Below are positions 1 to 32,000 of a stretch of DNA of 32,000 nucleotides, piece by piece. The DNA comes from Tannockella kyphosi. GTDB taxonomy: Bacteria > Bacillota_I > Bacilli_A > Erysipelotrichales > Coprobacillaceae. The DNA lies in assembly GCF_021054785.1 (NCBI RefSeq), contig NZ_CP088239.1, forward strand, positions 690,001 to 722,000, read 5' to 3'. The position numbers and the translations under genes were made by a program. The first letter of the stretch is position 1. Every line of letters begins with the position of its first letter. The notes below the pieces were generated by a model. That model had not been told where the DNA came from, ran no database searches, and saw only the letters and a program-made list of their open reading frames with translations.

Positions 1-1
1 T

Positions 2-670
2 GAAACTTTAATCAAGACAGCAATTTCAAATGTAAGCACCTATGTTTTAACTGATAAAAAAGAGTTTATAGAGCGAGTAAAACTGTTATCAGATACACAC
101 CATGAAGAACAAACCAAGAGTGATAAAAAGGAACTTGCCACAGCCAAAAAGCGAATTGCAGAACTTGATTTGCTTGTGAAGAAACTCTACGAGGGCAATG
201 CCATTGGCAAGATACCAGATAATCATTTTGAAAGGCTACTTGCTGATTATGATGATGAACACCAAGCCTTAACTAATAGAATTGCAGAGATAGAAACAGT
301 TGTAAATGAAATTGCATCGCAGACAGTAAAAACAGATAAGTTCATTGCACTTGTAAAAAAATACAAAGACTTTGATGAACTCACACCCACAATTCTAAAT
401 GAATTTATAGAAAAAATTATCGTTCATGAAGCTACTGGTGGACGAACAAGATTAAGACAACAACAGATTGATATTTACTTCAACTTTATTGGTAAATTTG
501 AACTTCCACAAGTGGAACTTAGTGAAGAAGAATTGGTCGCACAAGCTAAAGAGCGAGAAAGAATTGTCAAAGATATTGAAACCAATCGACGAGAAGCGAA
601 GGTGCAAAAAGAACGCAAAAAAGCAAAATTATTAGAAGAAGCAAAACAAAAACTTGATAAAGGAGCATAA
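2..670 (+). CDS. large serine recombinase, C-terminal part (5' end outside window)
   Basis: Frame 2 is open from nt 2 (ETLIKTAISNV..), upstream of the track start at 170. The tail aligns by eye with the two complete recombinases here (LYEGNAIGK.., FIEKIIVHE, IDIYFNFIGKFEL), consistent with a coiled-coil plus DUF4368-type C-terminus. Confidence 0.85.
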   Translation, partial: ETLIKTAISNVSTYVLTDKKEFIERVKLLSDTHHEEQTKSDKKELATAKKRIAELDLLVKKLYEGNAIGKIPDNHFERLLADYDDEHQALTNRIAEIETVVNEIASQTVKTDKFIALVKKYKDFDELTPTILNEFIEKIIVHEATGGRTRLRQQQIDIYFNFIGKFELPQVELSEEELVAQAKERERIVKDIETNRREAKVQKERKKAKLLEEAKQKLDKGA

Positions 671-674
671 TCAA

Positions 675-1064
675 ATGGAACAAAGTATATTTGAAAAATT
701 AGGTGGTACTTACATCAAAGTTGGCGATTATTATGTGCCGAATTTAGGACAGTTCAATGAAAATAAAAGCGATACAGATGATAGACCTTTAGGTAAATAT
801 GGTATGCTTTACGAAACATTTTTGAAAGAACATAGAACACCCCTATATCATCATCTATTATTAAATGGCACACTCCACTCACACTTGCGTGATGTCAATG
901 AGCAATCACAATACTTATTAGATACACTACTACCCCAGTACAAAGAAAAGCAAGGTGTAACAGAAGAACTCAAAGCCACCAATCAGCTTGAATGGGTAGG
1001 CAGAGTAAATAATATCATAGCACAGATTGAAGAAATCATTTTTACTGAAATCATCTATCTGTAA
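675..1064 (+). CDS. tnpV: TnpV-family transposon protein
   Basis: ATG at 675 follows an AAAGGAG RBS. The track start at 654 is a TTG inside the recombinase tail. MEQSIFEKLGGTYIKVGDYYVPNL...DDRPLGKYG...LRDVNEQSQ...GVTEELKA matches the TnpV family remembered from Tn4451. A paralog lies at 31437-31823. Confidence 0.8.
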   Translation: MEQSIFEKLGGTYIKVGDYYVPNLGQFNENKSDTDDRPLGKYGMLYETFLKEHRTPLYHHLLLNGTLHSHLRDVNEQSQYLLDTLLPQYKEKQGVTEELKATNQLEWVGRVNNIIAQIEEIIFTEIIYL

Positions 1065-1074
1065 TAACCAATTA

Positions 1075-1109
1075 GAGGTCGAGATCTTAACAGATTACGA
1101 CCTCTTTTT
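1075..1109 (+). terminator. rho-independent terminator after tnpV
   Basis: Stem GAGGTCG (1075-1081) pairs with CGACCTC (1098-1104), followed by TTTTT. Confidence 0.6.
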
Positions 1110-1140
1110 CTATCAAATTTTAATAAAGGAGCTTAAAGAA

Positions 1141-1440
1141 ATGGCAAAAAAATCAGTCATAGAACAAATCAAAGATACCCAAGAAGAAATCAATATTTTA
1201 CAAGTACAGAAGAAACAGCAGGAACATCAATTAGAGAAACACCAAGCGAGGGAGCGAGAGAAAGAACGCAAAGAACGTACTCGCAAAAAGATTGAACGTG
1301 GTGCAATTATAGACAGTATGAACCCACAAATAGCGAGCTTGACTAATCAGCAGTTAAAGGTATTCTTGCAACAAGTATTGCAGAGTGAACGAGCATTACA
1401 TTTGCTTAGTAAAATGACGGAAACCGAAGATGTGGGATAA
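1141..1440 (+). CDS. DUF3847-type small coiled-coil protein (probable relaxase accessory protein)
   Basis: ATG at 1141 after AAAGGAG. The 99 aa product matches the length of copy 11097-11396. It is Lys/Glu/Arg-rich, has an ..RTRKKIERGAII.. core, and lies immediately upstream of oriT and the relaxase. Confidence 0.75.
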   Translation: MAKKSVIEQIKDTQEEINILQVQKKQQEHQLEKHQAREREKERKERTRKKIERGAIIDSMNPQIASLTNQQLKVFLQQVLQSERALHLLSKMTETEDVG

Positions 1441-1590
1441 CTCCCTTGGTTACAAGGGCGCACTTATACACCATTTACAATGGTGCGTGCGTTCTGCGAA
1501 GCAATGGGGAGCTACTCTCCCCAAACCCCTAGTGTACTTTACGAAACCGACTACACCTTGCGAGGTGTAGTCATTTTCATAAAGTCTGAT
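1441..1590 (-). other. MobQ-type origin of transfer (oriT), nick strand is the minus strand
   Basis: The minus strand reads CACCATTGTAAATGGTG-TA-TAAGTGCGCCCT-TG. That is a 7-bp inverted repeat followed by the 12-mer TAAGTGCGCCCT, identical to the RSF1010/R1162 nic region as I recall it. Three further hairpins follow at 1443-1458, 1507-1521 and 1549-1572. Confidence 0.7.
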
Positions 1591-1609
1591 AAATCGAAAG
1601 GAGCAACTT

Positions 1610-3067
1610 ATGGCTATTTATCATTGTGCAATCAAAGTGATTAGTAGAGGAAAAGGCAAGTCTGCTGTTGCTTCATCTGCATATCGTAGTGGCACTAAAA
1701 TAACCAATGAATATGATGGAGAAACGCATGACTACACACAAAAAGGTGGTATCTATTCTAGTTGTATTTTACTACCCTCTCATGCCCCTAAAGAGTATGC
1801 AGACCGTAGCACTTTATGGAACGCAGTAGAGAAAATTGAAAAGGCAAAAAACAGTCAACTGGCAAGAGAAATTGAAGTATCAATACCGAAAGAAATCCCC
1901 TCACATCTATGGCAAAAAATGATGATTGATTATTGCAATGCAAACTTTGTTTCAAAGGGTATGATTGCTGATTTGTCTATTCATAATAAAGACCCTAGCA
2001 ACCCTCATTGCCATATCATGTTGACTATGCGACCTATAGAACAAGATGGAAAATGGGGAGCAAAATCACGCAAGATTTATGACCTTGACGAGAACGGACA
2101 GCGAATAAAACTTGCAAGTGGTAACTGGAAATCCCACAAACAAGACACTACGGATTGGAACGAACAAACCAATGCAGAACTTTGGAGAGCAAACTGGAGT
2201 GAACATTGCAATCTCTACCTTGAACAATTAGGATACAGAGAACGTATCGACCACCGAAGTTATGAAAGACAAGGTGTTGACCAAATCCCATCTATCCATC
2301 TAGGAGTACAGGCAAGCCAAATGGAGCAAAAAGGAATTGTTACTGAAAGAGGAAATATCAACCGACAAATTGCAGAGGATAACAAGGAAAGTAAGATAAT
2401 TAGGGCGAGAATTTCAAGGCTTATGAAGTGGCAACGAGAATTAAAAGCCAAGCCTTTAGACCTTGAAAAAGCAAACGTAAGAGCTTCTGTTATGGATAAA
2501 TTACAAGCCAATAATGTTGTGGTAAAAAATCAATATCAAATCCTTAAAGACCTTAAATCCAATGTGAGTGTATGGAACTTTATGCAGACACATAATATTC
2601 AAACAATGCAAGATTTTGCAAGTAAAATCAGCGAGCTAAACTCTAGCTTTTATGCCATCAAACGAGAGCAGGCAGGCATTAAAAAGAAGATAGAAAGCCT
2701 TGATAAACGATTAGAACTTTGGAGTGAATATCAAAAGTTAAGTCCTACTATAAAGCAGAACAATTCCCTAAAAGGCAAGGAAAAAGAACAGTTTTATAGC
2801 AAGCATAAAACAGAAATTGAACGTGTGCAAGAAATCGCAAATTTATTACAGAAATATGCAAATGCTAAAGGGAAAATTAGTGTATCGGATTGGAGAAAGG
2901 AACACAGTTCTTTTATGCAAGATATTTCATTGTGCGAGTGGAAATTGAAAGCATTAAAACAAGAAATCGGTAATGCCGAAAAGGTACAAAAGATACTGGA
3001 AGAAGAAAGAACTGGTGCAGATATTCCAAAGCCAACTAAAGAGCGAGTGACGGAAACATCATTGTAG
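1610..3067 (+). CDS. MobQ-family (MobA/MobL) relaxase
   Basis: N-terminus MAIYHCAIKVISRGKGKSAVASSAYRSG places a Tyr at position 25, as in RSF1010 MobA. The histidine-triad motif HNKDPSNPHCHIM is present. The RBS is AAAGGAG. Confidence 0.9.
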   Translation: MAIYHCAIKVISRGKGKSAVASSAYRSGTKITNEYDGETHDYTQKGGIYSSCILLPSHAPKEYADRSTLWNAVEKIEKAKNSQLAREIEVSIPKEIPSHLWQKMMIDYCNANFVSKGMIADLSIHNKDPSNPHCHIMLTMRPIEQDGKWGAKSRKIYDLDENGQRIKLASGNWKSHKQDTTDWNEQTNAELWRANWSEHCNLYLEQLGYRERIDHRSYERQGVDQIPSIHLGVQASQMEQKGIVTERGNINRQIAEDNKESKIIRARISRLMKWQRELKAKPLDLEKANVRASVMDKLQANNVVVKNQYQILKDLKSNVSVWNFMQTHNIQTMQDFASKISELNSSFYAIKREQAGIKKKIESLDKRLELWSEYQKLSPTIKQNNSLKGKEKEQFYSKHKTEIERVQEIANLLQKYANAKGKISVSDWRKEHSSFMQDISLCEWKLKALKQEIGNAEKVQKILEEERTGADIPKPTKERVTETSL

Positions 3068-3096
3068 AAGGTGACAGTTTTTGGGTGTTTTATCAA

Positions 3097-3126
3097 TAGA
3101 CTTTTTGTGCAACGATATGATATAAT
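3097..3126 (+). promoter_or_regulatory. sigma-A-type promoter with extended -10, reading into the cargo
   Basis: TAGACT is followed by an 18 nt spacer whose last three nt are TGA (giving TGnTATAAT), then TATAAT (3121-3126). The same promoter is conserved at 13053-13082. Homology between elements A and B ends exactly at the -10 box. Confidence 0.45.
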
Positions 3127-3180
3127 GATTGAAACAAAGCCACATCGTGAAGATGTGAGATTATTTATATACCCTTTAGT

Positions 3181-3213
3181 ATAGCTGTTTGCTTTTAGCA
3201 TACAGCTATTTTT
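3181..3213 (+). terminator. hairpin plus T-tract in the leader of the ECF operon (terminator or attenuator)
   Basis: ATAGCTGT (3181-3188) pairs with ACAGCTAT (3202-3209), followed by TTTT. An upstream hairpin is CACATC/GATGTG at 3141-3157. Confidence 0.4.
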
Positions 3214-3281
3214 AAAATATTCAAAAATACTTGTAACAAAACCTAATTAAGTGTCACTCATTATATGAAAGGAGGTAAAAG

Positions 3282-3782
3282 ATGAAAATTGATTCTATAT
3301 ATGAACGATATAAAAAAGATGTATACTATTTTTTATATCATTTGTCACACAACAAAGATATTTCAGAAGATTTAACTTCAGAAGTGTTTTTGCAGGCAAT
3401 TAAATCTTTACCCACTTTCAAGGGTGATTCTACTATCAAGACATGGTTATTTGGTATTGCAAGGCTTAAATGGTTTGAATTTGTCAGAAAAGAACAACGA
3501 ATAAAAAGTCTAAATGAAAAATTAGCCTTTTATATAAATGAGATTGATTTTTTCTGTGAAGATACTATTTCAGATAAACAAACAATAGATAGAATATTGG
3601 AATTACTTAACATAGAAACAGAAAAATCAAGGCGAGTTGTTTTGATGCGTGTTGAAGGATTTTCCTTTTATGAAATTGCAAATGAACTTTCTGTTTCGGA
3701 AAATTCAGCAAGAGTTATTGATTTTAGGACGAAGAAAAAAATAAAGCATATTTTGACGAAGGAGGGTTATATCGATGAATAA
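3282..3782 (+). CDS. ECF-type sigma-70 family RNA polymerase sigma factor
   Basis: 166 aa. Region 2-like segment is DLTSEVFLQAIKSLPTFKGDSTIKTWLFGIARLKW. Region 4 HTH is RRVVLMRVEGFSFYEIANELSVSENSARV. The RBS is AAAGGAGG. Confidence 0.85.
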   Translation: MKIDSIYERYKKDVYYFLYHLSHNKDISEDLTSEVFLQAIKSLPTFKGDSTIKTWLFGIARLKWFEFVRKEQRIKSLNEKLAFYINEIDFFCEDTISDKQTIDRILELLNIETEKSRRVVLMRVEGFSFYEIANELSVSENSARVIDFRTKKKIKHILTKEGYIDE

Positions 3783-4317
3783 AATTTCGTGTGATATTTG
3801 CATGGATTTAATGCCACTTGTTAAAGATGAAGTTGCAAGTGATGACAGCAAAAAAGTAGTATATGAACATATGAAGTTTTGCGAAGACTGTAAAAACGTA
3901 TACGGTGTAGAAGTGGTTTTTGAAGATAGTGACAAGAAAATCTTAAAAGATATCAAGAAAAATTTAACACATATATGTCTTATAATAATAGGACTAGGTA
4001 TGCTTTTTGGAATTAGTTTATCAGCAAACCAATTTATGTTTTACAACATCTTGATTATGCCAGCAATTGGTGGAATTAGTTATTTTTCACTTAAAAAGAA
4101 ATCGATTTATGTGTGTACGGCAGTATTTATTACAGTATATTTAAGATGGTTATATGATAGTTTTGGTTATGCCTTAAATGGAAACCTTGTGCAAGCGTTC
4201 ATACCGCCATTATGGTGGGCATTAATATACACTGGATTAACTTTGTTCGGTATTTTAGTAGCAATGTTACTGCATTTTGGATTTAAGAAGGAGAAAAAAG
4301 ATGAAAAAGATAACTGA
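3775..4317 (+). CDS. putative anti-sigma factor (zf-HC2-like N-terminus, about 4 TM helices)
   Basis: The start overlaps the sigma gene stop. N-terminal Cys pairs are CDIC...CEDC, followed by hydrophobic helices. This is the classic position downstream of an ECF sigma gene. Confidence 0.6.
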   Translation: MNKISCDICMDLMPLVKDEVASDDSKKVVYEHMKFCEDCKNVYGVEVVFEDSDKKILKDIKKNLTHICLIIIGLGMLFGISLSANQFMFYNILIMPAIGGISYFSLKKKSIYVCTAVFITVYLRWLYDSFGYALNGNLVQAFIPPLWWALIYTGLTLFGILVAMLLHFGFKKEKKDEKDN

Positions 4318-5107
4318 AATTATTGCAATTGTTGTTGCAGTTTTACTAATATTAGGACTATTATTTGTGGCAAATGGTTTTGTTGGAAATCCAGTTTCGA
4401 AATATTTAGTCGACAGAAATTCTGTAAGATATATAGAAGCACAGTATTCAGACTTAGACCTTGTAAAAGAAATCGGATTTGATTTTAAAAGCACCAGATA
4501 TTATGTAAAACTAAAAAGCGAAACAATAGAAGATTTACATTTTACACTGTACTATGGTATGAACGGCAAACTTGGTAGAGATTTATATGAAAACAACATT
4601 ACAAATGGCTGGAATGTTTTACACCGATTAAATGAAGATTATAGAGATGAAACAGATCTTATCTTTGAGCAACTTGAAACTAATCCACTATTCAAAGAAA
4701 CTGACAGTTTTTATACATCAGCTTATTTAATGAGCAGCATCGAAATTGAGGATAGATTAGTGGGTTTTGAAGATGTATCGGGTGGAATTGATGGTACTAC
4801 ACTTGAACTTGATAAAGATTATGATATAGCACAGATGGGAGCGATAGGTGGCTTAATTGACATAGACCTTAGATTTACTGACGGTGACGAAAGTTTTGAA
4901 AAAGGTGCAGAGGTTATAAGAGAGTTGAAACGTATTTTTGATGAAGCTGGTATAGGCTTTTATTATATAAGTTTTGGAATGATTAATGCCGAAGGCAATC
5001 TTGCATATAGAGTAGATTACTTGCCATATTCACAAATTGATGATGAAAATTTAGCTGATATACTTAAAACAATGGACGAAACAAACCCAATAGATTATGA
5101 TAAATAA
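4301..5107 (+). CDS. membrane-anchored protein of unknown function (N-terminal TM, acidic ~240 aa extracytoplasmic domain)
   Basis: ATG at 4301 after AAGGAG (the track start at 4277 has no RBS). MKKITEIIAIVVAVLLILGLLFVANG is a signal-anchor. The gene overlaps the anti-sigma gene by 17 nt, suggesting translational coupling. Confidence 0.6.
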   Translation: MKKITEIIAIVVAVLLILGLLFVANGFVGNPVSKYLVDRNSVRYIEAQYSDLDLVKEIGFDFKSTRYYVKLKSETIEDLHFTLYYGMNGKLGRDLYENNITNGWNVLHRLNEDYRDETDLIFEQLETNPLFKETDSFYTSAYLMSSIEIEDRLVGFEDVSGGIDGTTLELDKDYDIAQMGAIGGLIDIDLRFTDGDESFEKGAEVIRELKRIFDEAGIGFYYISFGMINAEGNLAYRVDYLPYSQIDDENLADILKTMDETNPIDYDK

Positions 5108-5165
5108 AATGAGCATTTTGTTCAAGGGTAAGTAACAACAAATGATATAGGAGGTGAGCTACTAG

Positions 5166-5330
5166 GTGCAAGATAAGAAGTGGCTTTTATGTCCTATGTG
5201 CCAAAACAAAACAAGGATACAACTTCGAGAAGATACGGAACTCAAAAACTTCCCACTATTCTGTCCGAAGTGTAAGCAAGAAACTTTAATTGATGTACTA
5301 AAGTACAAGATTATCGCAAAAATTAAATAG
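5166..5330 (+). CDS. cysteine-rich KTR zinc-ribbon protein (54 aa, not in ORF track)
   Basis: GTG at 5166 lies 9 nt after GGAGGTG. The product is VQDKKWLLCPMCQNKTRIQLREDTELKNFPLFCPKCKQETLIDVLKYKIIAKIK, carrying CPxC..KTR...CPKC. Confidence 0.6.
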   Translation: MQDKKWLLCPMCQNKTRIQLREDTELKNFPLFCPKCKQETLIDVLKYKIIAKIK

Positions 5331-5337
5331 GCATTAA

Positions 5338-5370
5338 AAGACGGATCATATACATGGTTCGTCTTTTTTT
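5338..5370 (+). terminator. rho-independent terminator
   Basis: Stem 5338-5347 (AAGACGGATC) pairs with 5356-5365 (GGTTCGTCTT, with wobbles), followed by T7. A homologous hairpin lies at 16772-16800 in element B. Confidence 0.55.
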
Positions 5371-5394
5371 ATGCCCAAATGAAAGGAGAAAGTT

Positions 5395-6348
5395 ATGCTG
5401 AAGAACTACAAAAGTTTTGATTTATTAGAAGAATATTTAAGCTATCTCACTGTTATTAAAGGTCGCTCAATCAATACGGTTATAGAGTATCGCACAGATG
5501 TGTTGATGTTCTTTGAGTTTCTTTGTAACAAGCGAAATATTGTGCGAGAAAAGTATGATTTAAGCATGATAGATAGTGCATTTATAGGGAGTGTTACTCT
5601 CAATGATATGTATGCGTTTATCTCTCATTGCCAAACAGAAAACAAGGCGAGTGCAGGCACTAGGGCAAGAAAAATTGTATCTATCCGTCAGTTTTGGAAG
5701 TATCTAAAAAACAAGGCTCGTGTCATTGATAATAATGTCGCAGAGGACTTAGAAACACCTAAAATTCCTAAACGTATACCAAAATATTTAACTCTTGAAG
5801 AAAGTGTAAGGTTGCTCATTGCCAGTGAATTTTCTGCAAGAAATCATTGTATCATCACGATATTTCTTAATTGTGCATTAAGGCTATCAGAACTAACAAG
5901 CCTTGATGTTGGGCAAGTATCATCAGACACTTTGCAAGTTATCGGCAAGGGAAATAAAGAACGCAAGATATTTCTAACCAGTGCTACCAAAAAGGCTCTT
6001 GAAAATTGGTTAAAAGAGCGAGAACAAATACCTACTTCCACTACTGCACTATTTATCACTAAGCAAGGAAATAGAATGACAGGGCGAAGTGTTCAAGATG
6101 TTGTTAAAAGGTGCATTAAACTTGCAAATTTAGAACACAAAAATATATCCGTACACAAATTAAGACACACAGCAGCCACCTTGATGTATCAGTATGGCAA
6201 GGTAGATATTCGCTCACTACAACAGATTTTAGGACACGAAAGTATCGCCACTACTGAAATCTATACGCATATTGACGAGAGCCAATTAAGAACTGCTGTA
6301 AACTCTAATCCTCTATCAGGAATGTATGGCAATGTGATGAAAGGATAA
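5395..6348 (+). CDS. XerC/XerD-like tyrosine recombinase
   Basis: SAM-like N-domain (YLTVIKGRSINTVIEYRTDV). Catalytic signature is ALRLSEL ... HKLRHTAAT ... LGHESIATTEIYTH. Confidence 0.85.
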   Translation: MLKNYKSFDLLEEYLSYLTVIKGRSINTVIEYRTDVLMFFEFLCNKRNIVREKYDLSMIDSAFIGSVTLNDMYAFISHCQTENKASAGTRARKIVSIRQFWKYLKNKARVIDNNVAEDLETPKIPKRIPKYLTLEESVRLLIASEFSARNHCIITIFLNCALRLSELTSLDVGQVSSDTLQVIGKGNKERKIFLTSATKKALENWLKEREQIPTSTTALFITKQGNRMTGRSVQDVVKRCIKLANLEHKNISVHKLRHTAATLMYQYGKVDIRSLQQILGHESIATTEIYTHIDESQLRTAVNSNPLSGMYGNVMKG

Positions 6349-6353
6349 TACCA

Positions 6354-7109
6354 ATGGCAGACAATAGAAAATATTACTACCTCAAGCTAAAAGAAAGTTA
6401 TTTTGATGATGATAGTATTATCTTGCTTGAGAGTATGCAAGATGGAATACTCTATTCATATATCCTCTTGAAACTGTATTTAAAGTCGCTTAAACACGAT
6501 GGCAAGCTACAACTAGATGAACATATCCCCTACAATGCTCAAATGATAGCAACGATTACAAGACAACAAGTAGGCACTATCGAACGAGCATTGCAGATAT
6601 ATGAGAAATTAGGACTTGTGGAAATTCTTGAAGATAGCACAGTTTACATGAGTAACATCGAGCTTTTTATTGGAAAATCTTCCACAGAGGGAGAACGAAA
6701 AAGACGTGCTAGAAACGGAAATATTAAGCAAAAACAGTTAGGTGGACAAATGTCCACCCCTATCTTGGACATTTGTCCACCAGAGATAGAGAGAGAGAAA
6801 GAGATAGAGATAGAGATAGAGAGAGAGTTAGAAAAGGGACATCACACACAGTTTTATGGAAAATATCAAAATATTTCATTAACAGATGAAGAACTGGAGC
6901 AATTAAAACAAGAACTACCCTCACTCTTTGAAAGCTATATTGAAAAATTAAGCGAATATATGGCAAGCACTGGTAAGACCTACAATAGCCATGTAGCCAC
7001 TATACGCAGATGGGCAAAGGAAGATGTATCTAAGAATACAAAAGGCTCACAGCGAGCTAATAAGGGCGAAGTACGCAATTATGACTACAAGGGTAATAAC
7101 AGCCTGTAA
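6354..7109 (+). CDS. phage replisome-organizer / DnaD-like replication initiator
   Basis: MADNRKYYYLKLKESYFDDDSIILLE...YSYILLKLYLKS matches the replisome organizer N-domain as I remember it. The C-terminal ..HVATIRRWAKED resembles DnaD-like tails. A paralog lies at 16830-17576. Confidence 0.75.
   Translation: MADNRKYYYLKLKESYFDDDSIILLESMQDGILYSYILLKLYLKSLKHDGKLQLDEHIPYNAQMIATITRQQVGTIERALQIYEKLGLVEILEDSTVYMSNIELFIGKSSTEGERKRRARNGNIKQKQLGGQMSTPILDICPPEIEREKEIEIEIERELEKGHHTQFYGKYQNISLTDEELEQLKQELPSLFESYIEKLSEYMASTGKTYNSHVATIRRWAKEDVSKNTKGSQRANKGEVRNYDYKGNNSL
6741..6836. repeat. palindromic repeats plus GAGA/GATA-rich tract inside the initiator gene (candidate ori)
   Basis: GGTGGACAAATGTCCACC (6741-6758) is a perfect palindrome. 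After an 8 nt gap comes GGACATTTGTCCACC (6767-6781), then about 55 nt of (GAGA/GATA)n encoding EIEREKEIEIEIERELEK. Confidence 0.4.
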
Positions 7110-7127
7110 ACGAAAGGAATATTGAAC

Positions 7128-7967: not shown

Positions 7968-8008
7968 TGGCTTTTATTGACTACAAAATCAGTAAGAGCC
8001 ATTTTTTT
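7966..8008 (+). terminator. rho-independent terminator
   Basis: An 11-bp stem (7966-7976 with 7993-8003, one G-U pair) is followed by a T-run. An identical copy lies at 18434-18476. Confidence 0.5.
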
Positions 8009-8037
8009 ATGCCCAAATTTAGAAAGGAGCAGACTAT

Positions 8038-8217: not shown

Positions 8218-8238
8218 TTCGGTCTTGACAAAACGCAC

Positions 8239-11024: not shown

Positions 11025-11030
11025 CAATGA

Positions 11031-23543: not shown

Positions 23544-23553
23544 GTGGTGTTCT

Positions 23554-25323
23554 ATGAAGCGAAAATCAAGGCTACAATTTACCGAAGAAGAGCGTGCTGA
23601 TCCATTCCTTGAAAAAGCTATTCATAAATCTGAAAAAATGGCTGATAAATTGGATAAAGCACACGCAAATATCCCTAAAAAGAAAATAAAAGTTAAACAA
23701 CGCACTTTTGATGAAGCTACTGGCAAAACAAAGGTGCGTTTGCATTTTGAGGAAGTTGACAAAGTGAAACCACCCTCAAAGCTCACACATATCGCAAATC
23801 AATCTCCAACTGTTGCTTTGCAGTCTAATGTGCATAGTAAAATGAGTGAATATGAAAACGATAATGTGAGCGTAGAAGCAGCACATAAAGCAGAACAAGC
23901 AGGTGAATTTTCAGCAAGACAAGTACAAAACAGTTATCATAGCCAAAAGTTAAAACCTTATCGAGAACACGCAAAGGCTGAAAGAAAATCGGCAAATGCT
24001 GATGTTGACTATTTATACAAAAAGAAAATGCAAGAAAATCCCAATGCAACAACCAATTCTATTTCTAAATGGCAACAAAAACGAGCTATTAAAAAAGAGT
24101 ATCTTGCTAGTCAAGGTGGGAAAAAGACAGCACAACAAACTGCAAGTGCTACAACAAGTGCTGTGAAAAAAGGTGCAGACAAAGTTGTTCAAGCTGTGGG
24201 TGCTGTATTAAAAGATCCAAAAGTGCTATTGATTATATTAGCTATTCTTCTAGTAGCAGGTTTAATTGGTGCTATGGTTTCTTCGGTATCATTGGTGTTT
24301 CAAGGTGCAATTTCCAATACAGTTTCAACTTCTTACACTTCTGATGATGCAGAACTAATTGCTACTAATGATAACTACACAGCTCTTGAAAGTAATTTGC
24401 AGTTACAGATAAACAACATAGAAACGGATTATCCCGATTATGACGAATATCGTTATGACTTAGATAACATTGCACATGATCCACATCAACTTGCATCGTA
24501 TCTTACAGCAGTTTTTCAGACATTTACAGCGAGTGAAGTGCAAAGTCAAATTGAGCAAATATTTAATAGCCAGTACACCTTAACTCTTATTCAAGAAATT
24601 GAAGTTCGATACCGAACAGAAACAAGAACTGGAACGAATACTACCATAGATGATTATGGAAATATCATAGTGGAAACCTACGAATATGAAGTCGAAGTTC
24701 CTTATGACTATTATATTTTAAATGTCACTCTTGAAAATATTGGGATTGATAGTATTGCTAATAGCTCACTCTCTAGTTCTGAACTTGAAATGTACAATGT
24801 TTACCTAGAAACGAGTGGTAACAAACCTTTGTTGTTTGGTGGTGGCTCTAGTGATGGAACTCCGTCCACAGATTTAAGTGGGGTTGTATTTGTTGATGGT
24901 GTACGAACTGGTAATCAAGATATTGTAGATATTGCATTAGCACAAGTTGGCAATGTTGGCGGACAGCCTTATTGGTCTTGGTATGGCTTTAGCAGTCGTG
25001 TGGAATGGTGTGCTTGCTTTGTTTCTTGGACATTAAATCAAGCAGGTTATAGCGAGCCTAAATTTGCAGCTTGTCAAAGTCAAGGTGTTCCATACTTTAG
25101 TTCCAATGGCAGATGGGCAGACAGTAGTTATGAAGATATTGCTCCGGGTGATGTAATCTTCTTTGACTGGGATGGAGATGGAAGTGCAAACCATGTGGGT
25201 ATCGTTATCGGTACAGACGGAAGTCGTTTATATACTGTTGAGGGCAATTCGGGTGATGCTTGCAAAATAAAAGATTATGACTTAAATAGTTCCGTCATCA
25301 TGGGATACGGACTAATGAATTAA
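23554..25323 (+). CDS. membrane-anchored cell-wall hydrolase with C-terminal CHAP/NlpC-P60 domain (VirB1 analogue, CD1108-type)
   Basis: Central TM segment VLLIILAILLVAGLIGAMV. The C-terminus has a catalytic Cys context (VEWCACFVSW) and His (ANHVGIVIG...YTVEGNSG). Confidence 0.8.
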   Translation: MKRKSRLQFTEEERADPFLEKAIHKSEKMADKLDKAHANIPKKKIKVKQRTFDEATGKTKVRLHFEEVDKVKPPSKLTHIANQSPTVALQSNVHSKMSEYENDNVSVEAAHKAEQAGEFSARQVQNSYHSQKLKPYREHAKAERKSANADVDYLYKKKMQENPNATTNSISKWQQKRAIKKEYLASQGGKKTAQQTASATTSAVKKGADKVVQAVGAVLKDPKVLLIILAILLVAGLIGAMVSSVSLVFQGAISNTVSTSYTSDDAELIATNDNYTALESNLQLQINNIETDYPDYDEYRYDLDNIAHDPHQLASYLTAVFQTFTASEVQSQIEQIFNSQYTLTLIQEIEVRYRTETRTGTNTTIDDYGNIIVETYEYEVEVPYDYYILNVTLENIGIDSIANSSLSSSELEMYNVYLETSGNKPLLFGGGSSDGTPSTDLSGVVFVDGVRTGNQDIVDIALAQVGNVGGQPYWSWYGFSSRVEWCACFVSWTLNQAGYSEPKFAACQSQGVPYFSSNGRWADSSYEDIAPGDVIFFDWDGDGSANHVGIVIGTDGSRLYTVEGNSGDACKIKDYDLNSSVIMGYGLMN

Positions 25324-25343
25324 AGAAAGGCAGGTTTTATTAG

Positions 25344-25607
25344 ATGAACGCAAAAATTAAAAAGGTTATTAAGGAAATTGATAACACAGAGCAGAAAATT
25401 GCAGAATTTCAAGAAAGATTAAAACAGCTAAATCAAGAAAAAGTAGATTTAGAAAATCTTGAAATTATCGGTATGGTTAGAGGAATGAAAGTAACAACTT
25501 ATGATATTGAAAATGTTATGAAATCATTTACTGATTTTTATAAAAATGGAGCTTCTTTAAAACAAGAAGATAAAAAGAAAATGGAGGATATTATTGATGA
25601 AGATTAA
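25344..25607 (+). CDS. DUF4315-type small coiled-coil protein
   Basis: 87 aa. KIKKVIKEIDNTEQKIAEFQERLKQLNQEKVDLENLEIIGMVRGM is the typical pattern for this family. Confidence 0.65.
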   Translation: MNAKIKKVIKEIDNTEQKIAEFQERLKQLNQEKVDLENLEIIGMVRGMKVTTYDIENVMKSFTDFYKNGASLKQEDKKKMEDIIDED

Positions 25608-26271
25608 AATTATGACTTTAACCCTTGTTATGACACTTTGCATGGGTATGACTTCGCTAACAGCTTTTGCTAGTAGTACGGATGAGAGTGATACAGAAGA
25701 AACTACAACGATTTCTTCTACTGAAACTTATTCACTCACTCCCGAGGGTAACTTAACCCTTGTTGATGATGTAGAAACAGATAACACAGAAGATAAACAA
25801 TTTATTACAGTGCAAAGTAAAAATGGAAATTACTTTTATCTTGTTATTGATCATTCGGGTGATACAGACAACGTATACTTTCTAAATCTAGTTGATGAAG
25901 CTGACTTATTAGCTCTTATCGAAGATGAGCCACAAGTAGAGTCTACACCAACAGTAGATACTTCTGATACTACTGGAACTACCGATTTAACAGAAACAGA
26001 GTCAACAACTACAAATACGACTACTGGAGAAACATCAGCAGCTGAAGCAAGCAGTTCTATGATGCTTGCAGTAGTAGGACTTGTAGCATTGCTCGGTGGT
26101 GGATTATTTTATTATCTTAAATTCATGAAACCAAAGAAAAATACAGCAAAACCGACAACGGATTTTGATGATTTTGAATTTGAAGATGAAGATGATACTG
26201 ACGAAGAAGAATATGGTTTTGATTTTGATGATGCTACGGATGAAGAACTGGAGGATGAATTAAATGACTAA
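25597..26271 (+). CDS. DUF4366-type secreted/anchored conjugation protein (CD1107-type)
   Basis: Signal peptide, then LTPEGNLTLVDDV...KQFITVQSKNGNYFYLVIDH...VYFLNLVDEADLLAL, a Thr-rich linker, a C-terminal TM helix and a very acidic tail. Confidence 0.7.
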   Translation: MKIKIMTLTLVMTLCMGMTSLTAFASSTDESDTEETTTISSTETYSLTPEGNLTLVDDVETDNTEDKQFITVQSKNGNYFYLVIDHSGDTDNVYFLNLVDEADLLALIEDEPQVESTPTVDTSDTTGTTDLTETESTTTNTTTGETSAAEASSSMMLAVVGLVALLGGGLFYYLKFMKPKKNTAKPTTDFDDFEFEDEDDTDEEEYGFDFDDATDEELEDELND

Positions 26272-27286
26272 GCCATTGCCTTTTACAAATGAAGAAATGA
26301 GCCGAGTGTTTGATACTAACTTAATTGAATATGCTAAATCACAAGGTTTTGATGTGGTAAGAGCAGACAGAAAGTCCTATCGTGTGAAAGATTACGGAGG
26401 ACTTTTTCTATTTCCCAAAGGGTATCATCACTTTAGTGAAACTGACAGTGGAAACATTGTCGGTTTTGCAAAGAAATATCAAGGATTTACTTTTATTGAA
26501 GCAGTAGAGCATATCCTAAATTCAAAGGCTTATGCAAATACTATTCCAGTAGTAGTAGAGCATGAAATGAAAAGAGGTGAACTGGTACTCCCTATTAAAA
26601 ATGAAGATAGTAGTAAAGTGAAAAAGTACCTAATCGAAGATAGATGCCTTGATAAAGATATTGTTGAGGAACTAATTTTACAAGGCAAGATTTATTCGGC
26701 TGTATCTGAATTTAAGGGAGCAACTTTTACAAATTGTGCCTTTGTATCTTATGACAACAATAACAATCCTAAGTATTGTGCGTTGCGTGGATTAGGAAAA
26801 AGCAACTTTAGGCAAGATGTTAGAAATTCAGACAAGACCTATGGATTTTTGTTGAATGGAACTGGAACAAGAGTATTTATATTTGAAAGTCCTATTGATG
26901 CAATTAGTCATGCGACACAAACGAAACTTAACGATATGAACTACCAAGATGATTATCGTATTTCAGAAGGTTGTCTTTCGGATAAGGCATTATCAAGGTT
27001 TTTAGAAAGTAATCCAAAGGTAACAGAAGTTGTGTTTTGCTTTGATAATGATTTGAATGGTAAAAATCACGAAGGCAAACCACATAATCATGGTCAAGAG
27101 TTTGCTAAAAAATGTGCGAGTAAGTACATGGATAAAGGATACAAAGTTTTTATTCATACACCAACAAGAAAAGACTTTAATGCAGATTTGCAATTTATTC
27201 AAAAATCAGTTGTAAAAAAATTGAGGGAAGCAGAAATGACACCTCGAAATGATAAAAAAGGAGAAGTGAAAACTTATGAAAGATAA
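26264..27286 (+). CDS. DUF3991 plus Toprim domain protein (primase-like)
   Basis: N-terminal ..YAKSQGFDVVRADRKSYRVKDYGGLFLF.., followed by the Toprim-like acidic motifs FIFESPIDAIS and VVFCFDNDLNG. Confidence 0.7.
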   Translation: MTKPLPFTNEEMSRVFDTNLIEYAKSQGFDVVRADRKSYRVKDYGGLFLFPKGYHHFSETDSGNIVGFAKKYQGFTFIEAVEHILNSKAYANTIPVVVEHEMKRGELVLPIKNEDSSKVKKYLIEDRCLDKDIVEELILQGKIYSAVSEFKGATFTNCAFVSYDNNNNPKYCALRGLGKSNFRQDVRNSDKTYGFLLNGTGTRVFIFESPIDAISHATQTKLNDMNYQDDYRISEGCLSDKALSRFLESNPKVTEVVFCFDNDLNGKNHEGKPHNHGQEFAKKCASKYMDKGYKVFIHTPTRKDFNADLQFIQKSVVKKLREAEMTPRNDKKGEVKTYER

Positions 27287-28151
27287 CGTAATGGAACCAA
27301 AAATCCTTGAACATGGGGATTTTGGTGAAATTAGAACAACAGTTGATATTGGTGGTAATCCTATGTTTTGTGGATCTGATGTTGCCACAGCTTTAGGATA
27401 CAAAGAACCACGCAAGGCTATTGCTAGACATACAAAGGGTGGGACGAAATATCCCACCCTTACGAATGGAGGTGTGCAAGATTTAGTATTTATCTATGAA
27501 CCGGATTTATATAGGTTGTTGGTTAAAAGTAAACTTCCATTAGCACAAGAATTTGAACGATGGGTATTTGAAGATGTTTTACCTTCTCTACGCAAATATG
27601 GTATATATGCAACTGATGAAGTTCTTGCAAACGATGAGAAATTCAATGAGTTAAAGAAACAACTAAAAGAAGAAAGAAAAGCAATGCGACTTCAAAAATC
27701 TAAATGCTCTGAACTTAAAAAAAATAATAAAGAGTTAATTTCTTGCATTGAAGAATTACAGATTGCTAATCTACACCAAGCAGTAGACATTGAAGCTCTT
27801 GAAGAAATTATGGAAGAAGCTCAAGATATGGTTGACTATGCAGAAATCATCTTAGGTAGCGACCTTGATATGACAGCTACTCAAATTGCAGCAGATTATG
27901 GCATTTCAGCTATTAGATTAAACAATTTATTGCATGAAGCAGGACTACATCGAAAAGTAAACGGTCAATGGGTGCTATATCGTAAATACATGAATTGTGG
28001 ATATGCAAATTCCTACACTGGTTTTGTAGAACAATTTGAGCATTATCATGTGCAAACTAGATGGACACAAAAAGGAAGATTGCTCATTCATCAAATTTTA
28101 AAACACGCAGGTATTAAACCTATTTGCGAATTGGAGGAACAATATGAATAA
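27276..28151 (+). CDS. antirepressor-like protein (Bro-N plus KilA-C domains)
   Basis: FGEIRTTVDIGGNPMFCGSDVATALGYKEPRKAIARH is Bro-N-like. The C-terminal TATQIAADYGISAIRLNNLLHEAGLHRKVNGQWVLY is KilAC-like. Confidence 0.75.
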   Translation: MKDNVMEPKILEHGDFGEIRTTVDIGGNPMFCGSDVATALGYKEPRKAIARHTKGGTKYPTLTNGGVQDLVFIYEPDLYRLLVKSKLPLAQEFERWVFEDVLPSLRKYGIYATDEVLANDEKFNELKKQLKEERKAMRLQKSKCSELKKNNKELISCIEELQIANLHQAVDIEALEEIMEEAQDMVDYAEIILGSDLDMTATQIAADYGISAIRLNNLLHEAGLHRKVNGQWVLYRKYMNCGYANSYTGFVEQFEHYHVQTRWTQKGRLLIHQILKHAGIKPICELEEQYE

Positions 28152-29559
28152 ATTAGTATTAGCCGAGAAACCCTCAGTAGGTCTTGCGATTGCAAAGGTC
28201 TTAGGAGCAACTACTAGACAAGATGGGTATTATGAGGGCAATGGTTATTATATTTCATGGTGTGTGGGACATCTTGTAGAACTTGCCACAGCAGAACATT
28301 ATGGAGAACAATATGCCAAGTGGAAATATGACGATTTGCCTATTCTTCCTACCGACTGGCAATATAACGTTTCAAAAGGAAAAGAAAAGCAAATGAAGAT
28401 TATCGCTAACCTCATGAACAAAACAGATGTGGCCACAATTATTTGTGCCACAGATGCAGGACGTGAGGGTGAGTTAATCTTCCGACTTGTATATGATAAA
28501 ATCGATTGTATCAAGCCTGTAAAAAGACTTTGGATTTCTTCTCTTGAAGATGAAGCAATTAGTAATGGTTTTTCTAATCTACATGATGGAGAACAATTTG
28601 AAAATCTGTATCAAGCTGCATTGTGCAGAGCAAAAGCCGACTGGCTAGTAGGCATCAATGCAACAAGATTATTTTCCGTTTTGTATGGGCAAACCTTGAA
28701 TATTGGTCGTGTAATGTCACCTACTCTTGCAATGATTGTGGAACGAAATTCACAAGTAACAGCCTTTAAATCAGAGCCACTCTATACTGTAATGTTAGAT
28801 TGTGGTGGTTTTACTCTTGCTAGTGACAAACTGAAAGATAAATCACAAGCTGAAGCTATGGCAAATGCTTGTCATAATCAAGATGTTCTTATTGAAACAG
28901 TAGAACGAAAAGAAAAGGCAGAAAAGCCACCGAAACTTTATGATTTAACCACTTTGCAACGTGAAGCCAATAAATTACTTGGTTTTACAGCAGAACAAAC
29001 TTTACAATATACACAAAGCCTATATGAGCAAAAATTAGTGACTTATCCTCGTACTGATAGTAGATACTTAACAACTGATATGAAAAACTCCGTTCCTGCT
29101 GTGGTAAATGCCAGTGCAGGAATTTTTATGTCTGATATTTCTAGTCTAGCTATCAATGTGGAGCAAGTGACAGATAACAACAAGGTATCGGATCACCATG
29201 CGATCATTCCAACTATCAAGGTAAACGGCTTTGATTTGCAGTCACTTCCACTTGGAGAACGTGAAATCTTACGATTGGTTGCAATGCGTCTTTTGACAGC
29301 CACGAATGAAAATCATATCTATGCTGAAACTGTGGTAACTGGAAAGTGTCACGATTACAGTTTTGCTACCAAAGGTAAAACAATTCTCTTTGATGGATTT
29401 AAGGCAGTTCAAAAGCTCTACAAAGAAACCGAAGAAAAAGCAGATATTCCACTACCCGAACTTGCAAAGGGTGATAGTTTTATGGCTAATTCTTCAATCA
29501 AAGAGGGCAAAACTTCACCACCTAAGAACTTTACCGACGATGTATTATGTAAAAGGTAG
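28144..29559 (+). pseudogene. topB: DNA topoisomerase III (type IA), 3'-truncated by insertion of element C
   Basis: N-terminal Toprim (MNKLVLAEKPSVG.., CATDAGREGE) and the active-site region TYPRTDSRYL. The ORF ends ..KTSPPKNFTDD plus 5 foreign codons (VLCKR). The usual continuation and the C-terminal ~200 aa are absent. Confidence 0.75.
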
Positions 29560-29592
29560 CTAAGAAACTATTAGAGAGAGAAAGGTGATTTT

Positions 29593-31434
29593 ATGAGCAA
29601 AAAGACTAAGAAAAATGCTGTTACTGCCCTGTATTCAAGGCTTTCTCGTGATGATGAAATTATAGGGGATAGTAACAGTATTGTCAATCAAAAGAAGATG
29701 TTGGAGAAGTATGCAGAGGATAATGGGTATACAAATATTCAACATTTTTCGGACGATGGAATTTCGGGTGGTACATTTGATAGACCCTCTTGGAAACAAA
29801 TGATTGAAGGTGTGGAAAGTGGAATAGTCACAACCATAATTACACGAGATTTGAGCAGAATAGGTAGAGATTATTTACAAGTTGGATTTTACACCGAAGT
29901 GATGTTTAGAGAAAAAGGAGTTAGATTTATCGCTATTGCAAACAATGTAGACAATAGCAAAAGAGAAAGTGCAGAGTTTGCTCCATTCCTAAATATTATG
30001 AATGAGTGGTATATTCGTGATACAAGTAGAAAAGTTACTTCTGTTCTTAGAGCAAGAGGTTCAGACGGAAAACATCATACCACCAATCACGCAATCTACG
30101 GTTATAAAAAATGCAAAGACAATCCAAGCCAATGGCTAATTGATGAACCTGCTGCAAGTGTAGTGAAACGAATGTTTCAAATGTGTATTGATGGGAAAGG
30201 TCCTTATCAAATTGCAAAGGTACTTACAGAGGAAAAAGTTGAAAGACCATCATACTATTTAGCACAAAGAGGAATGGGAAATCATATTTCAAATTACAAA
30301 GCCGAAGAACCTTACTTATGGAGAGGGACAACAGTTGCACATATGTTAAGCAAACCCGAATATATGGGGCATACTGTGAATTTTCGCACCTACAAAGATA
30401 GCTATAAAGATAAGCAACCGAAGAAAACAGATAAAGAAGATTGGATAATTTTCAAAGACACGCAAGAGCCTATTGTTGATGAAGCAACTTGGGAAACAGT
30501 ACAAAAACTAAAGAAAACTAAGCGTAGAAGTGATACCATTGGAGAAGCCAATCCATTAACAGGACTTATGTATTGTGCTGACTGTGGAGCGAAAATGTAT
30601 AATCATAGAGGTAGTGCTGGGTATGAACGAAATTGGTGTGGCGAAAAAACAGATAAAAAGCGACCTAATCGAGATGAATACAACTGTTCCACATATGACT
30701 TAGCAAGGCAAGATTACAGATTTGTACCTTGTACTCAGCATTATATTCGTACAGAAGCTATTAAAAATATTTTACTTGAAACTATACAAGAAGTTAGCAG
30801 ATGTGTGCAGTTAGATGAAGATAAATTTATAAATGAAATCATCAATAAGACATCATCACAACAAGAAAAATCTGTTAATTCATTGAAGCAACAAATCACA
30901 AAGGATAATCGACGAGTAATAGACTTAAACAAACTAATACGACAGCTTTATGAGGACAATGTTATTGGAAAGTTAAGTGATAAGCGTTTCAATTTGATGA
31001 TTGAAGATTATGAAGAAGAACAAAAGCAACTAGAGCAATCCATTGAGCAATCAGAAACTATGCTGAAACAACTTGATGAGGAAAGTTTTAATACTACAAA
31101 ATTCATAGAACTTATTAAGAAGTACACAGATCTTAGTGAACTTACAACACCAATGATAAATGAATTTGTTGATAAAATTTTAGTGCATGAGGGCAAATGG
31201 GAAAATTATCAGAGAACGCAAGAAATAGAAATCTATTTGAATTTCGTTGGTAAAATTGAAATCACAAAAAAGGAAATTGAACTAACAGAAACTGAAATTT
31301 TGGAACAACAAGAGTTACAGAAGAAGCGAGATAAAAAACGAGAATATAATTATCGTTATATGAGGAAACGCAGAGAAAGATTAAAAGAGGAACAAACAAA
31401 AATAAAGGCTGATGAAGAAAGTAAAGGAGCGTAA
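29593..31434 (+). CDS. large serine recombinase (element C)
   Basis: ALYSRLSRDDEIIGDSNSIVNQ, CADCGAKMY zinc ribbon, coiled coil, and the tail FVDKILVHE...IEIYLNFVGKIEI. Confidence 0.9.
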   Translation: MSKKTKKNAVTALYSRLSRDDEIIGDSNSIVNQKKMLEKYAEDNGYTNIQHFSDDGISGGTFDRPSWKQMIEGVESGIVTTIITRDLSRIGRDYLQVGFYTEVMFREKGVRFIAIANNVDNSKRESAEFAPFLNIMNEWYIRDTSRKVTSVLRARGSDGKHHTTNHAIYGYKKCKDNPSQWLIDEPAASVVKRMFQMCIDGKGPYQIAKVLTEEKVERPSYYLAQRGMGNHISNYKAEEPYLWRGTTVAHMLSKPEYMGHTVNFRTYKDSYKDKQPKKTDKEDWIIFKDTQEPIVDEATWETVQKLKKTKRRSDTIGEANPLTGLMYCADCGAKMYNHRGSAGYERNWCGEKTDKKRPNRDEYNCSTYDLARQDYRFVPCTQHYIRTEAIKNILLETIQEVSRCVQLDEDKFINEIINKTSSQQEKSVNSLKQQITKDNRRVIDLNKLIRQLYEDNVIGKLSDKRFNLMIEDYEEEQKQLEQSIEQSETMLKQLDEESFNTTKFIELIKKYTDLSELTTPMINEFVDKILVHEGKWENYQRTQEIEIYLNFVGKIEITKKEIELTETEILEQQELQKKRDKKREYNYRYMRKRRERLKEEQTKIKADEESKGA

Positions 31435-31436
31435 TT

Positions 31437-31823
31437 ATGGAACAAAGTATATTTGAAAAAATGGGTGGTACTTACATCAAAGTTGGCGATTACTATGTAC
31501 CAAATTTAGGACAGTTTGATGACAAAGAAGAAACAGATGATAGACCTTTAGGCAAGTATGGAATGATACGAGAAACATTCCTAAAAGAACATAGAAAGCC
31601 TTTATACAATCATCTGTTACTTAGTGGAGAACTACATTCCCACTTGCGTGATGTAAATGAGCAATCACAATATTTACTAGACACACTACTGCCCCAGTAC
31701 AAAGCAAATCAAGGTGTCACAGAGGAATTAAAAGCCAGTAAACAACTTCTATGGGTAGGAATGGTAAACAACATCCTAGCACAGATTGAAGAAATCATAT
31801 ACAGCGAAATTGTGTATGTATAA
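31437..31823 (+). CDS. tnpV: TnpV-family transposon protein
   Basis: 128 aa, a close paralog of 675-1064. Confidence 0.8.
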   Translation: MEQSIFEKMGGTYIKVGDYYVPNLGQFDDKEETDDRPLGKYGMIRETFLKEHRKPLYNHLLLSGELHSHLRDVNEQSQYLLDTLLPQYKANQGVTEELKASKQLLWVGMVNNILAQIEEIIYSEIVYV

Positions 31824-31833
31824 TTTAGGATTT

Positions 31834-31868
31834 AAGACGGAGCAAGTAATATTGTTTCCGTCTTTTTT
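31834..31868 (+). terminator. rho-independent terminator after tnpV
   Basis: AAGACGGA (31834-31841) pairs with TCCGTCTT (31857-31864), followed by a T-run. Confidence 0.6.
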
Positions 31869-31911
31869 CATATAAAAAATCAAATTAAAAACAGAAAAGG
31901 AGCATTTCATT

Positions 31912-32000
31912 ATGACAAAGAAAACAATCGTAGAGCAACTCAAAGAAACACAAATCGAGATTGAAAAAACAAGAACAGAAAAGAAACAAAAGGAACATCA
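31912..32000 (+). CDS. DUF3847-type protein, N-terminal part (runs off the window)
   Basis: MTKKTIVEQLKETQIEIEKTRTEKKQKEH parallels MAKKSVIEQIKDTQEEINILQVQKKQQEH. The RBS is AAAGGAG. Confidence 0.6.
   Translation, partial: MTKKTIVEQLKETQIEIEKTRTEKKQKEH

Follow-up and report, generated by a model that had tools for sequence, protein, structure and literature searches.

The DNA analysed here, a 32,000-nucleotide stretch of the Tannockella kyphosi genome (contig NZ_CP088239.1, positions 690,001 to 722,000; hereafter the window), is, to judge from its gene content, the conjugation module of a Clostridia-type integrative and conjugative element (ICE) of the Tn1549 family. Inserted in this module are three integrative and mobilizable elements (IMEs), which we call A, B and C. 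Each has a serine recombinase gene; A and B cut virD4 (traG), the gene of the type IV coupling protein (T4CP), and C cuts topB, the gene of topoisomerase III. The proposal of the initial annotation, that three serine-recombinase IMEs are lodged in transfer genes of one ICE, was thus borne out. The features listed in Table 1 come from six-frame calling of open reading frames (ORFs) and Pfam domain scans; almost all genes are on the plus strand, and scans for Rfam families and tRNA genes found none in the window.

The gene order virD4-maff2-virB6-virB3-virB4-virB1-DUF4315-DUF4366-topB, read across 18721-29537 from the Pfam matches, matches the Tn1549-family backbone in Table 3 of Guedon et al. 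2025 (PMC12084326). A variable region contains the genes for DUF3991/Toprim and Bro/ANT. The type IV secretion system (T4SS) genes between 19700 and 27286 had been described as intact, and they are indeed full length when compared by tblastn with homologues in related ICEs and with the Pfam models. The ten visible backbone genes and the two T4CP fragments are all intact and carry no signs of decay. The N-terminal third of virD4 (172 codons) and the C-terminal third of topB (~220 codons) lie outside the window, and so do the MOBP7 relaxase gene (PF03432) and the integrase gene expected towards the ends of a Tn1549-family ICE.

Fixed insertion sites in conserved ICE genes

Related loci were collected with a VirB4 query, one genome per species, and 80 were kept, all of them from Clostridia and allies (individual loci are cited below by L numbers). 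The best VirB4 relatives, 84-85% identical, are in Vallitalea, Anaerocolumna, Muricomes, Robinsoniella and Lacrimispora. The survey of relatives for empty sites, suggested by the initial annotation, was successful: both T4CP sites are empty at 42 related loci, where homologues of the two T4CP pieces and of the N-terminal part are directly contiguous, and topB is intact at 47, where it continues beyond codon 467. Across the three sites the intact proteins read SSYVVTD/PKGSIVIECG, KKYKLAAG/KTAKSILISCG and PPKPFTDD/TLLSSMEN (the slash marks the insertion point). A is inserted at VVTD/PKGS, after residue 172 of the 596-aa T4CP, B at KLAAG/KTAKS, after residue 317 of the same protein, and C at FTDD/TLLS, after residue 467 of a TopB of ~690 aa, whose intact homologues go on with TLLSSMEN. 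In every case the recombinase has inserted its element at a single, fixed point of an ICE gene, within a conserved stretch that encodes a motif. Between A and B lie 435 bp of genuine T4CP coding sequence, so the two elements must have entered independently at two separate sites, and the tandem accretion in one gene that had been assumed earlier did not take place.

Both T4CP sites are used in other genomes. Site 1, the site of A, is occupied in L036 by an element whose right end differs from that of A. Site 2, the site of B, is occupied in L024, L062 and L078, and the right ends found there are homologous to that of B (...AAAAAGtCCTTGACA...TCGGG[C/T], followed across the junction by AAAAC). 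A protein search with the B recombinase found a large group of ~60%-identical enzymes in Streptococcus agalactiae, S. anginosus, Anaerococcus, Peptoniphilus, Finegoldia and others. At the S. agalactiae loci L164 and L165 the gene of a 60%-identical recombinase starts 40 nt past a T4CP gene that is cut at KKYKLAAG/, i.e. at the codon used by B, and DUF3847 and MobA/MobL genes are located downstream of it. Because the codon is the same and the recombinases are 60% identical, B can be assigned to the known group of traG-targeting IMEs. The homology search with the 166-aa tail of the A recombinase returned short fragments only.

The initial annotation had held that precise excision restores the interrupted genes. 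This could be followed in silico for B, which is complete in the window; A and C each have one flank outside it. Removal of B (joining 8239-8672 to 18723-19539) produces a gapless frame of 416 codons that shares 89.3% identity with an intact T4CP over residues 173-585 of the latter, and GG is the sole 2-bp core that preserves the reading frame. With this core attL is GCAGCA-GG-GGATATAAAC, attR is TTAGCATCG-GG-TAAAACAGC, and the rebuilt attB is GCAGCAGGTAAAACAGC. The termini of B form an imperfect inverted repeat. The right end of A contains CTTGACAA, ~12 nt from the junction. We also considered CTTGACA, found near the right ends of the elements, as an outward promoter and rejected it; imperfect terminal inverted repeats, putative binding sites of the recombinases, are a better fit.

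For C the crossover would be the GA at 29536-29537. The position of the topB crossover was derived from 58 attL and 8 attR junctions of relatives. Within the GA(N)GA(N) codons it was assigned to the GA that comes first, because the bases just after this dinucleotide vary together with the subtype of the element and do not follow the host gene. Two Logan contigs of 2 kb carry a 100% identical recombinase at the topB junction of C, and the genome loci L046 and L076 have left ends homologous to C at the same position. Exact-protein look-ups with the B recombinase, the B relaxase and the CHAP hydrolase gave no match. A metagenome scan with the C recombinase yielded 80 contigs, mostly from human gut, with recombinases 58-66% identical to it; 72 of these had enough upstream sequence to be informative, and in 58 of the 72 the recombinase gene begins 55-62 bp past a topB interrupted at codon 466/467. 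Eight of the contigs contain an entire element (7.6-10.3 kb), which always ends exactly at topB codon 468, and the interrupted topB halves are full length in all eight. MobA/MobL occurs in 8/8 of these elements, TnpV in 6/8 and DUF3991/Toprim in several, and no match to a replisome organiser or DnaC was found in these relatives of C (~60% identical, metagenome contigs). One near-identical left end adjoins more than 25 different topB sequences, which argues that the topB-site family is actively mobile and promiscuous among ICE lineages, and that its insertions are recent and not co-evolved with their hosts. We found no paper in the open-access literature that names topB as an IME target, which is not proof of novelty. 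This target is possibly unreported. In human-gut metagenomes insertions at the topB site are very common, a fact that annotation tools and ICE/IME catalogues should account for.

A perfect sigma-70 consensus (TTGACA-17-TATAAT, 12/12) was noticed on the minus strand at 29687-29659, in the 5' portion of serC, the recombinase gene of C, pointing out of the element to topB. We rejected the idea of a conserved antisense promoter; the match is probably due to chance, because the -10 box is unconserved in 58 relatives.

Some relatives carry more than one insertion. Both maff2 and topB are occupied in L076, L099, L115, L154 and L158. On one human-gut metagenome contig (L142, 4554-19196) topB has two insertions, one near codon 66 and one at codon 467. 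On another (L135, 1-10906) topB contains an IME, and next comes a T4CP gene into whose site 2 a further serine-recombinase element has inserted; this T4CP gene may belong to the topB-inserted IME, because there is no C-terminal topB fragment between them. The ICE gene most often interrupted among the 80 related loci is maff2 (L034, L063, L066, L070, L079 and others), which is split near codons 38-43.

Gene content of the elements and exchange of modules

Table 1. Coordinates of the three IMEs and of the ICE genes in the window
Element	Feature	Position	Strand	Basis
A	IME A (left end before the window)	1-8237	+	Pfam; junction compared with empty sites
A	Serine recombinase, C-terminus (DUF4368), 166 aa visible	170-670	+	Pfam
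A	TnpV	675-1064	+	Pfam
A	DUF3847	1141-1440	+	Pfam
A	Candidate origin of transfer (oriT), 23-nt inverted repeat just upstream of relaxase	1536-1585		Inverted-repeat search
A	MobA/MobL relaxase, 485 aa, E 1e-90	1610-3067	+	Pfam
A	Extracytoplasmic function (ECF) sigma factor	3282-3782	+	Pfam
A	zf-HC2 anti-sigma factor	3775-4317	+	Pfam
A	YfjL-like	4277-5107	+	Pfam
A	XerC-like tyrosine recombinase	5395-6348	+	Pfam
A	Replisome organiser (phage-type)	6354-7109	+	Pfam
A	AGAGAT hexamer array, 8.5 copies, inside replisome-organiser gene	6782-6832		Tandem-array search
A	DnaC/IstB-like ATPase	7122-7967	+	Pfam
A	TnpW	8038-8217	+	Pfam
ICE	virD4/traG (T4CP) middle fragment, PKGSIVIECG...KKYKLAAG, residues 173-317 of intact 596-aa homologue; between A and B	8239-8672	+	Pfam T4SS-DNA_transf
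B	IME B, complete, 10,050 bp (inferred GG crossover counted once)	8671-18720	+	Pfam; junctions compared with homologues
B	Serine recombinase (Resolvase+Recombinase+Zn_ribbon_recom+DUF4368)	8876-10732	+	Pfam
B	DUF6809 (in place of TnpV)	10725-11024	+	Pfam
B	DUF3847	11097-11396	+	Pfam
B	Candidate oriT, 23-nt inverted repeat just upstream of relaxase	11492-11541		Inverted-repeat search
B	MobA/MobL relaxase, 485 aa, E 1e-90	11566-13023	+	Pfam
B	Small membrane proteins	13178-13477; 15863-16159 (true start probably ~15901); 16295-16687	+	
B	IS91-family unit in cargo region, 2.4 kb	13497-15900	-	Pfam; 6-bp TATGAG repeat on flanks
B	IS91-unit Y2 transposase	13809-14897	-	Pfam
B	IS91-unit tyrosine recombinase	14897-15988	-	Pfam
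B	Replisome organiser (phage-type)	16830-17576	+	Pfam
B	AGAGAT hexamer array, 9.5 copies, inside replisome-organiser gene	17258-17314		Tandem-array search
B	DnaC/IstB-like ATPase	17596-18435	+	Pfam
B	TnpW	18506-18685	+	Pfam
ICE	virD4 C-terminal fragment, begins at Gly codon of LAAG/KTAKS	18721-19539	+	Pfam TraG-D_C
ICE	Maff2	19700-19912	+	Pfam
ICE	VirB6-like TrbL_2	19924-20787	+	Pfam
ICE	VirB3-like PrgI	20801-21238	+	Pfam
ICE	VirB4	21153-23543	+	Pfam
ICE	CHAP/NlpC-P60 hydrolase (virB1 position)	23554-25323	+	Pfam
ICE	DUF4315	25344-25607	+	Pfam
ICE	CD1107-like (DUF4366)	25594-26271	+	Pfam
ICE	DUF3991/Toprim	26264-27286	+	Pfam
ICE	Bro-N/ANT	27276-28151	+	Pfam
ICE	topB (topoisomerase III), N-terminal two-thirds, ends ...PPKNFTDD	28144-29537	+	Topoisom_bac positions 2-330 of 411
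C	IME C (right end beyond the window)	29538-32000	+	Pfam; homologous left ends in relatives
C	Serine recombinase (Resolvase+Recombinase+Zn_ribbon_recom+DUF4368), ORF intact	29593-31434	+	Pfam
C	TnpV	31437-31823	+	Pfam

According to the initial annotation each IME has a relaxase, an oriT and a replication module of its own and lacks a T4SS and a T4CP. For A and B this description holds, with the oriT as a candidate only; C shows just the recombinase and TnpV in its visible part. No VirB4, T4CP or other T4SS domain was detected by Pfam in any ORF of A within the window (1-8237) or in any ORF of B (8671-18720). As to the integrase that belongs to the definition of an IME (Guedon et al. 2017), B and C have the full four-domain protein, and for A the C-terminal 166 aa are seen. 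B has intact ORFs for both the recombinase and the relaxase.

A and B share a gapless direct repeat of 2,058 bp (1069-3126 in A, 11025-13082 in B; 97.7% identity), which includes DUF3847, the candidate oriT and the relaxase gene, and a further 1.75 kb at 86% over the replication module and TnpW. Their recombinases are ~40% identical in protein sequence (compared over the C-terminus of A), and the TnpV region of A has 81% DNA identity with that of C. The presence of the 2,058-bp repeat beside such dissimilar recombinases points to a recent module exchange or gene conversion. A hybrid IME was found in the metagenome-assembled genome Bacillota bacterium GCA_044426065.1 (L163, 9777-19650; contig JAWXUW010000006.1). 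It has a B-type recombinase (97% amino acid identity) and B-type ends, combined with A-type TnpV/DUF3847/relaxase genes (99.4% nucleotide identity to 656-3171 of the window) and A-type Xer/replication genes (98.6% to 5090-8105). Modules are clearly exchanged between IMEs of this kind. The hybrid lies outside any T4CP gene, its flanks (ATATAAACTAGCAACGG-GG-GAAACAGCAAAATAG) only resemble the T4CP attB, and its location may be either a secondary site or a relic.

L163 also has, at 21655-21720, the sequence of the cargo region of B without the IS91-family unit, both flanks being 100% identical; in B the unit sits where a small membrane-protein gene has its start codon. The AGAGAT arrays of A and B encode EIEIE-type repeats. 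By analogy with some phage replisome-organiser genes, these arrays could be iterons of an internal origin. The ECF sigma factor, the zf-HC2 anti-sigma factor and the YfjL-like protein (3282-5107) represent cargo of A; C. difficile Tn6104/Tn6105 have likewise been noted with sigma factors.

Excision, conjugation and competing explanations

The interpretation that we favour, with a probability of roughly 0.6, is that three IMEs of the Tn4451/Tn6104 kind are nested in a Tn1549-family ICE, that their excision would rebuild virD4 and topB, and that the excised circles would be mobilized via the ICE. Without a coupling protein a T4SS delivers neither the ICE nor the IMEs, thus the ICE is transfer-dead as long as A or B is integrated, and A and B, having no coupling protein, need one from a helper. 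In the mechanism we envisage, TnpX-like recombinases have integrated the IMEs site-specifically into conserved segments of ICE genes. Excision of A and B would rebuild virD4 and excision of C would rebuild topB, as reconstructed in silico for B and as expected for A and C. The excised circles may be maintained by their own replication modules, in the case of A also by the Xer-like resolvase, and the MOBQ-type MobA/MobL relaxosomes would then use the rebuilt coupling protein and the pore of the ICE. In the recipient, the IMEs would re-enter the same sites of an ICE. A possible trigger is read-through transcription from the cut ICE genes into the recombinase genes of B (serB) and C (serC). Both lie on the same strand as the cut ICE gene and start ~200 bp (serB) and 55 bp (serC) downstream of it; no plus-strand terminator is predicted between the cut genes and serB or serC, so transcripts of the conjugation operon could extend into the recombinase genes and thereby express them. 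The arrangement is a weak hint at a trigger, and it is inherited with the family.

A number of points weigh against the favoured interpretation. Restoration of virD4 requires two independent excisions in one cell, the requirement of topB for transfer is unproven, and the recombinase of A, seen in part, could be defective. Homologous recombination across the 2,058-bp repeat of A and B would irreversibly delete the B recombinase gene and the middle T4CP fragment. The read-through idea is inapplicable to the maff2-type IMEs (L034, L066, L079), which have the recombinase gene at the other end. Published experiments with comparable elements must also be considered. Tn6103, a CTn5-like ICE of C. difficile R20291, has two putative mobilizable transposons in ORF 1743 and a third in ORF 1776. 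The ICE excises, no transfer of it could be detected (<1e-11), and of its three IMEs Tn6104 alone was found to excise (Brouwer et al. 2011, PMC3158075). According to these authors the insertions may account for the missing transfer of the ICE. In S. suis, two ICE-hosted IMEs did not excise, though the ICE transferred (Libante et al. 2019). Finally, nothing in the sequence of the window demonstrates either that excision is timed with conjugation or that it acts as a checkpoint. A far-reaching version of the favoured interpretation would wire the excision of all three IMEs to induction of the conjugation operon, by read-through into serB/serC or by the ECF sigma/anti-sigma pair of A. The IMEs would then constitute an obligatory multi-lock checkpoint, with the ICE being transfer-competent only when they are circular, and topB would in addition be a major unnamed IME target in gut Clostridia. 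We consider this combination improbable.

The main rival explanation supposes that the ICE is permanently disabled. The IMEs would use its genes as cost-free safe sites and would be mobilized in trans by other, intact Tn1549-family ICEs or by plasmids, their excision being uncoupled from this ICE. The Tn6103 and S. suis experiments favour this explanation: Tn6103 with its three IMEs was not transferred and the IME-free CTn5 was, the hosted S. suis IMEs stayed in place, and many defective relatives exist. Several Tn1549-family ICEs often co-reside in the genomes of Clostridia and Faecalibacterium, and the hybrid element with the 97%-identical B-type recombinase sits at an attB-like site outside a T4CP gene, thus a live ICE does not seem to be strictly needed for integration. 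In view of these two observations the earlier statement that each IME depends on the very ICE it inactivates was too strong. The occurrence of the same IME in very divergent topB genes, indicating recent, promiscuous insertions that did not co-evolve with the host, also agrees with a disabled ICE. The undecayed state of the ten visible backbone genes and of both T4CP fragments, as well as the full-length topB halves of the eight complete relatives, argue against it, but because the insertions look recent, the intactness of the visible ICE genes fails to discriminate between excision gating and a dead host. On balance we find permanent disablement possible, though on the unlikely side.

It is quite improbable that the IMEs are passive cargo, immobile by themselves and travelling within the ICE (cis-mobilization) with a coupling protein supplied in trans by another element. 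Such journeys have precedents, as ICESp2905 moved whole with two IMEs inside and an S. suis ICE was transferred with a non-excising IME, but these cases concern maff2, snf2 or PPI and not the coupling protein, whereas in the present ICE virD4 is cut twice; moreover, B has intact recombinase and relaxase genes, and its close relatives are clearly mobile. That the nested layout is an assembly artefact, a mis-join via the near-identical 2-kb segments of A and B, is hardly credible: repeats like the 2,058-bp and 1.75-kb ones can confuse short-read assemblers, but the right junction of A, both junctions of B and the left junction of C are all outside the repeats, each junction falls exactly at a codon where independent elements have inserted in other genomes, and the most that a mis-join could cause is an exchange of interiors between A and B.

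Nested IMEs decide whether the widespread Tn1549-family ICEs of gut bacteria and pathogens, which carry vanB and many other cargo genes, can still transfer. Whether an interrupted virD4 is a reversible switch or a dead end affects the prediction of ICE mobility and of resistance-gene spread from genome sequence. The ICE described here, locked twice in virD4 and once in topB, is a clean, undecayed test case.

Comparison with known systems

It is instructive to compare this ICE with Tn6103, as described in the publication. Tn6103 is of the same CTn5/Tn1549 type and it carries Tn6104, Tn6105 and Tn6106 in its conjugation region, two of them in one ORF of the T4CP region and the third in a nearby ORF. 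Its elements have TnpV like A and C, and MobA/MobL like A and B; Tn6104 has a replisome organiser and DnaC, and excises with a 2-bp repeat. The two ICEs differ in the third insertion, which in Tn6103 is in ORF 1776, immediately after the first target, and here is 10 kb downstream, in topB, and they differ in cargo. The Faecalibacterium 'matryoshkas', as presented in the accessible part of PMC12084326, include six ICEs with three or four IMEs; like the present ICE they have the same backbone order and nested MOBQ2 (PF03389) IMEs, which are listed under names of the form IME_..._traG and IME_..._maff2, and, unlike C, no element in that part of the paper is named for topB. Considering Tn6103, the Faecalibacterium ICEs and the multiple occupancy that is common in the relatives we surveyed, the view of the initial annotation that the triple occupancy looks unusual is not supported.

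Among streptococcal IMEs with serine integrases, 12/16 were located in traG, maff2 or snf2 of ICEs, with two sites in traG (Coluzzi et al. 2017; integrase families clustered at 40% identity). IME_Sco1050_traG_site1 and site2 resemble A and B in being serine-integrase IMEs at two distinct internal virD4 sites of one ICE. The traG IME of S. agalactiae (L164) shares with B the identical codon and a 60%-identical recombinase, and differs from it in its ABC transporter cargo and in its host, a streptococcal and not a Clostridia-type ICE. Coluzzi et al. 2017 proposed that induction of conjugation leads to excision of the IME and thereby to restoration of the module, with Kunkel 1990 (skin/sigK) and Rabinovich 2012 as precedents; the proposal was repeated by Guedon et al. 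2017, who described ICEs with one to three IMEs. Excision gating, including the skin/sigK analogy, and the nested architecture are therefore already published, and the present ICE is a well preserved example that adds no new principle.

Tn4451/Tn4453 (TnpX, TnpV, TnpW, TnpZ) are similar to these IMEs: they encode a mobilization protein and a large serine recombinase whose C-terminal domain is DUF4368, and they lack a T4SS. Of the traits of Tn4451, TnpV is found in A and C and TnpW in A and B; the GA core listed for TnpX fits the topB family, whereas B fits GG. Tn4451 inserts at many GA sites, whereas A, B and C use single, long, gene-specific sites, and the replication module of A and B is unlike Tn4451. 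The skin element in sigK and the Listeria comK prophage ('active lysogeny') resemble B in that a serine-recombinase element splits a gene, which precise excision rebuilds (for B in silico). For skin and comK excision was shown to be timed by a host programme that needs the gene, whereas the genes interrupted here belong to another mobile element.

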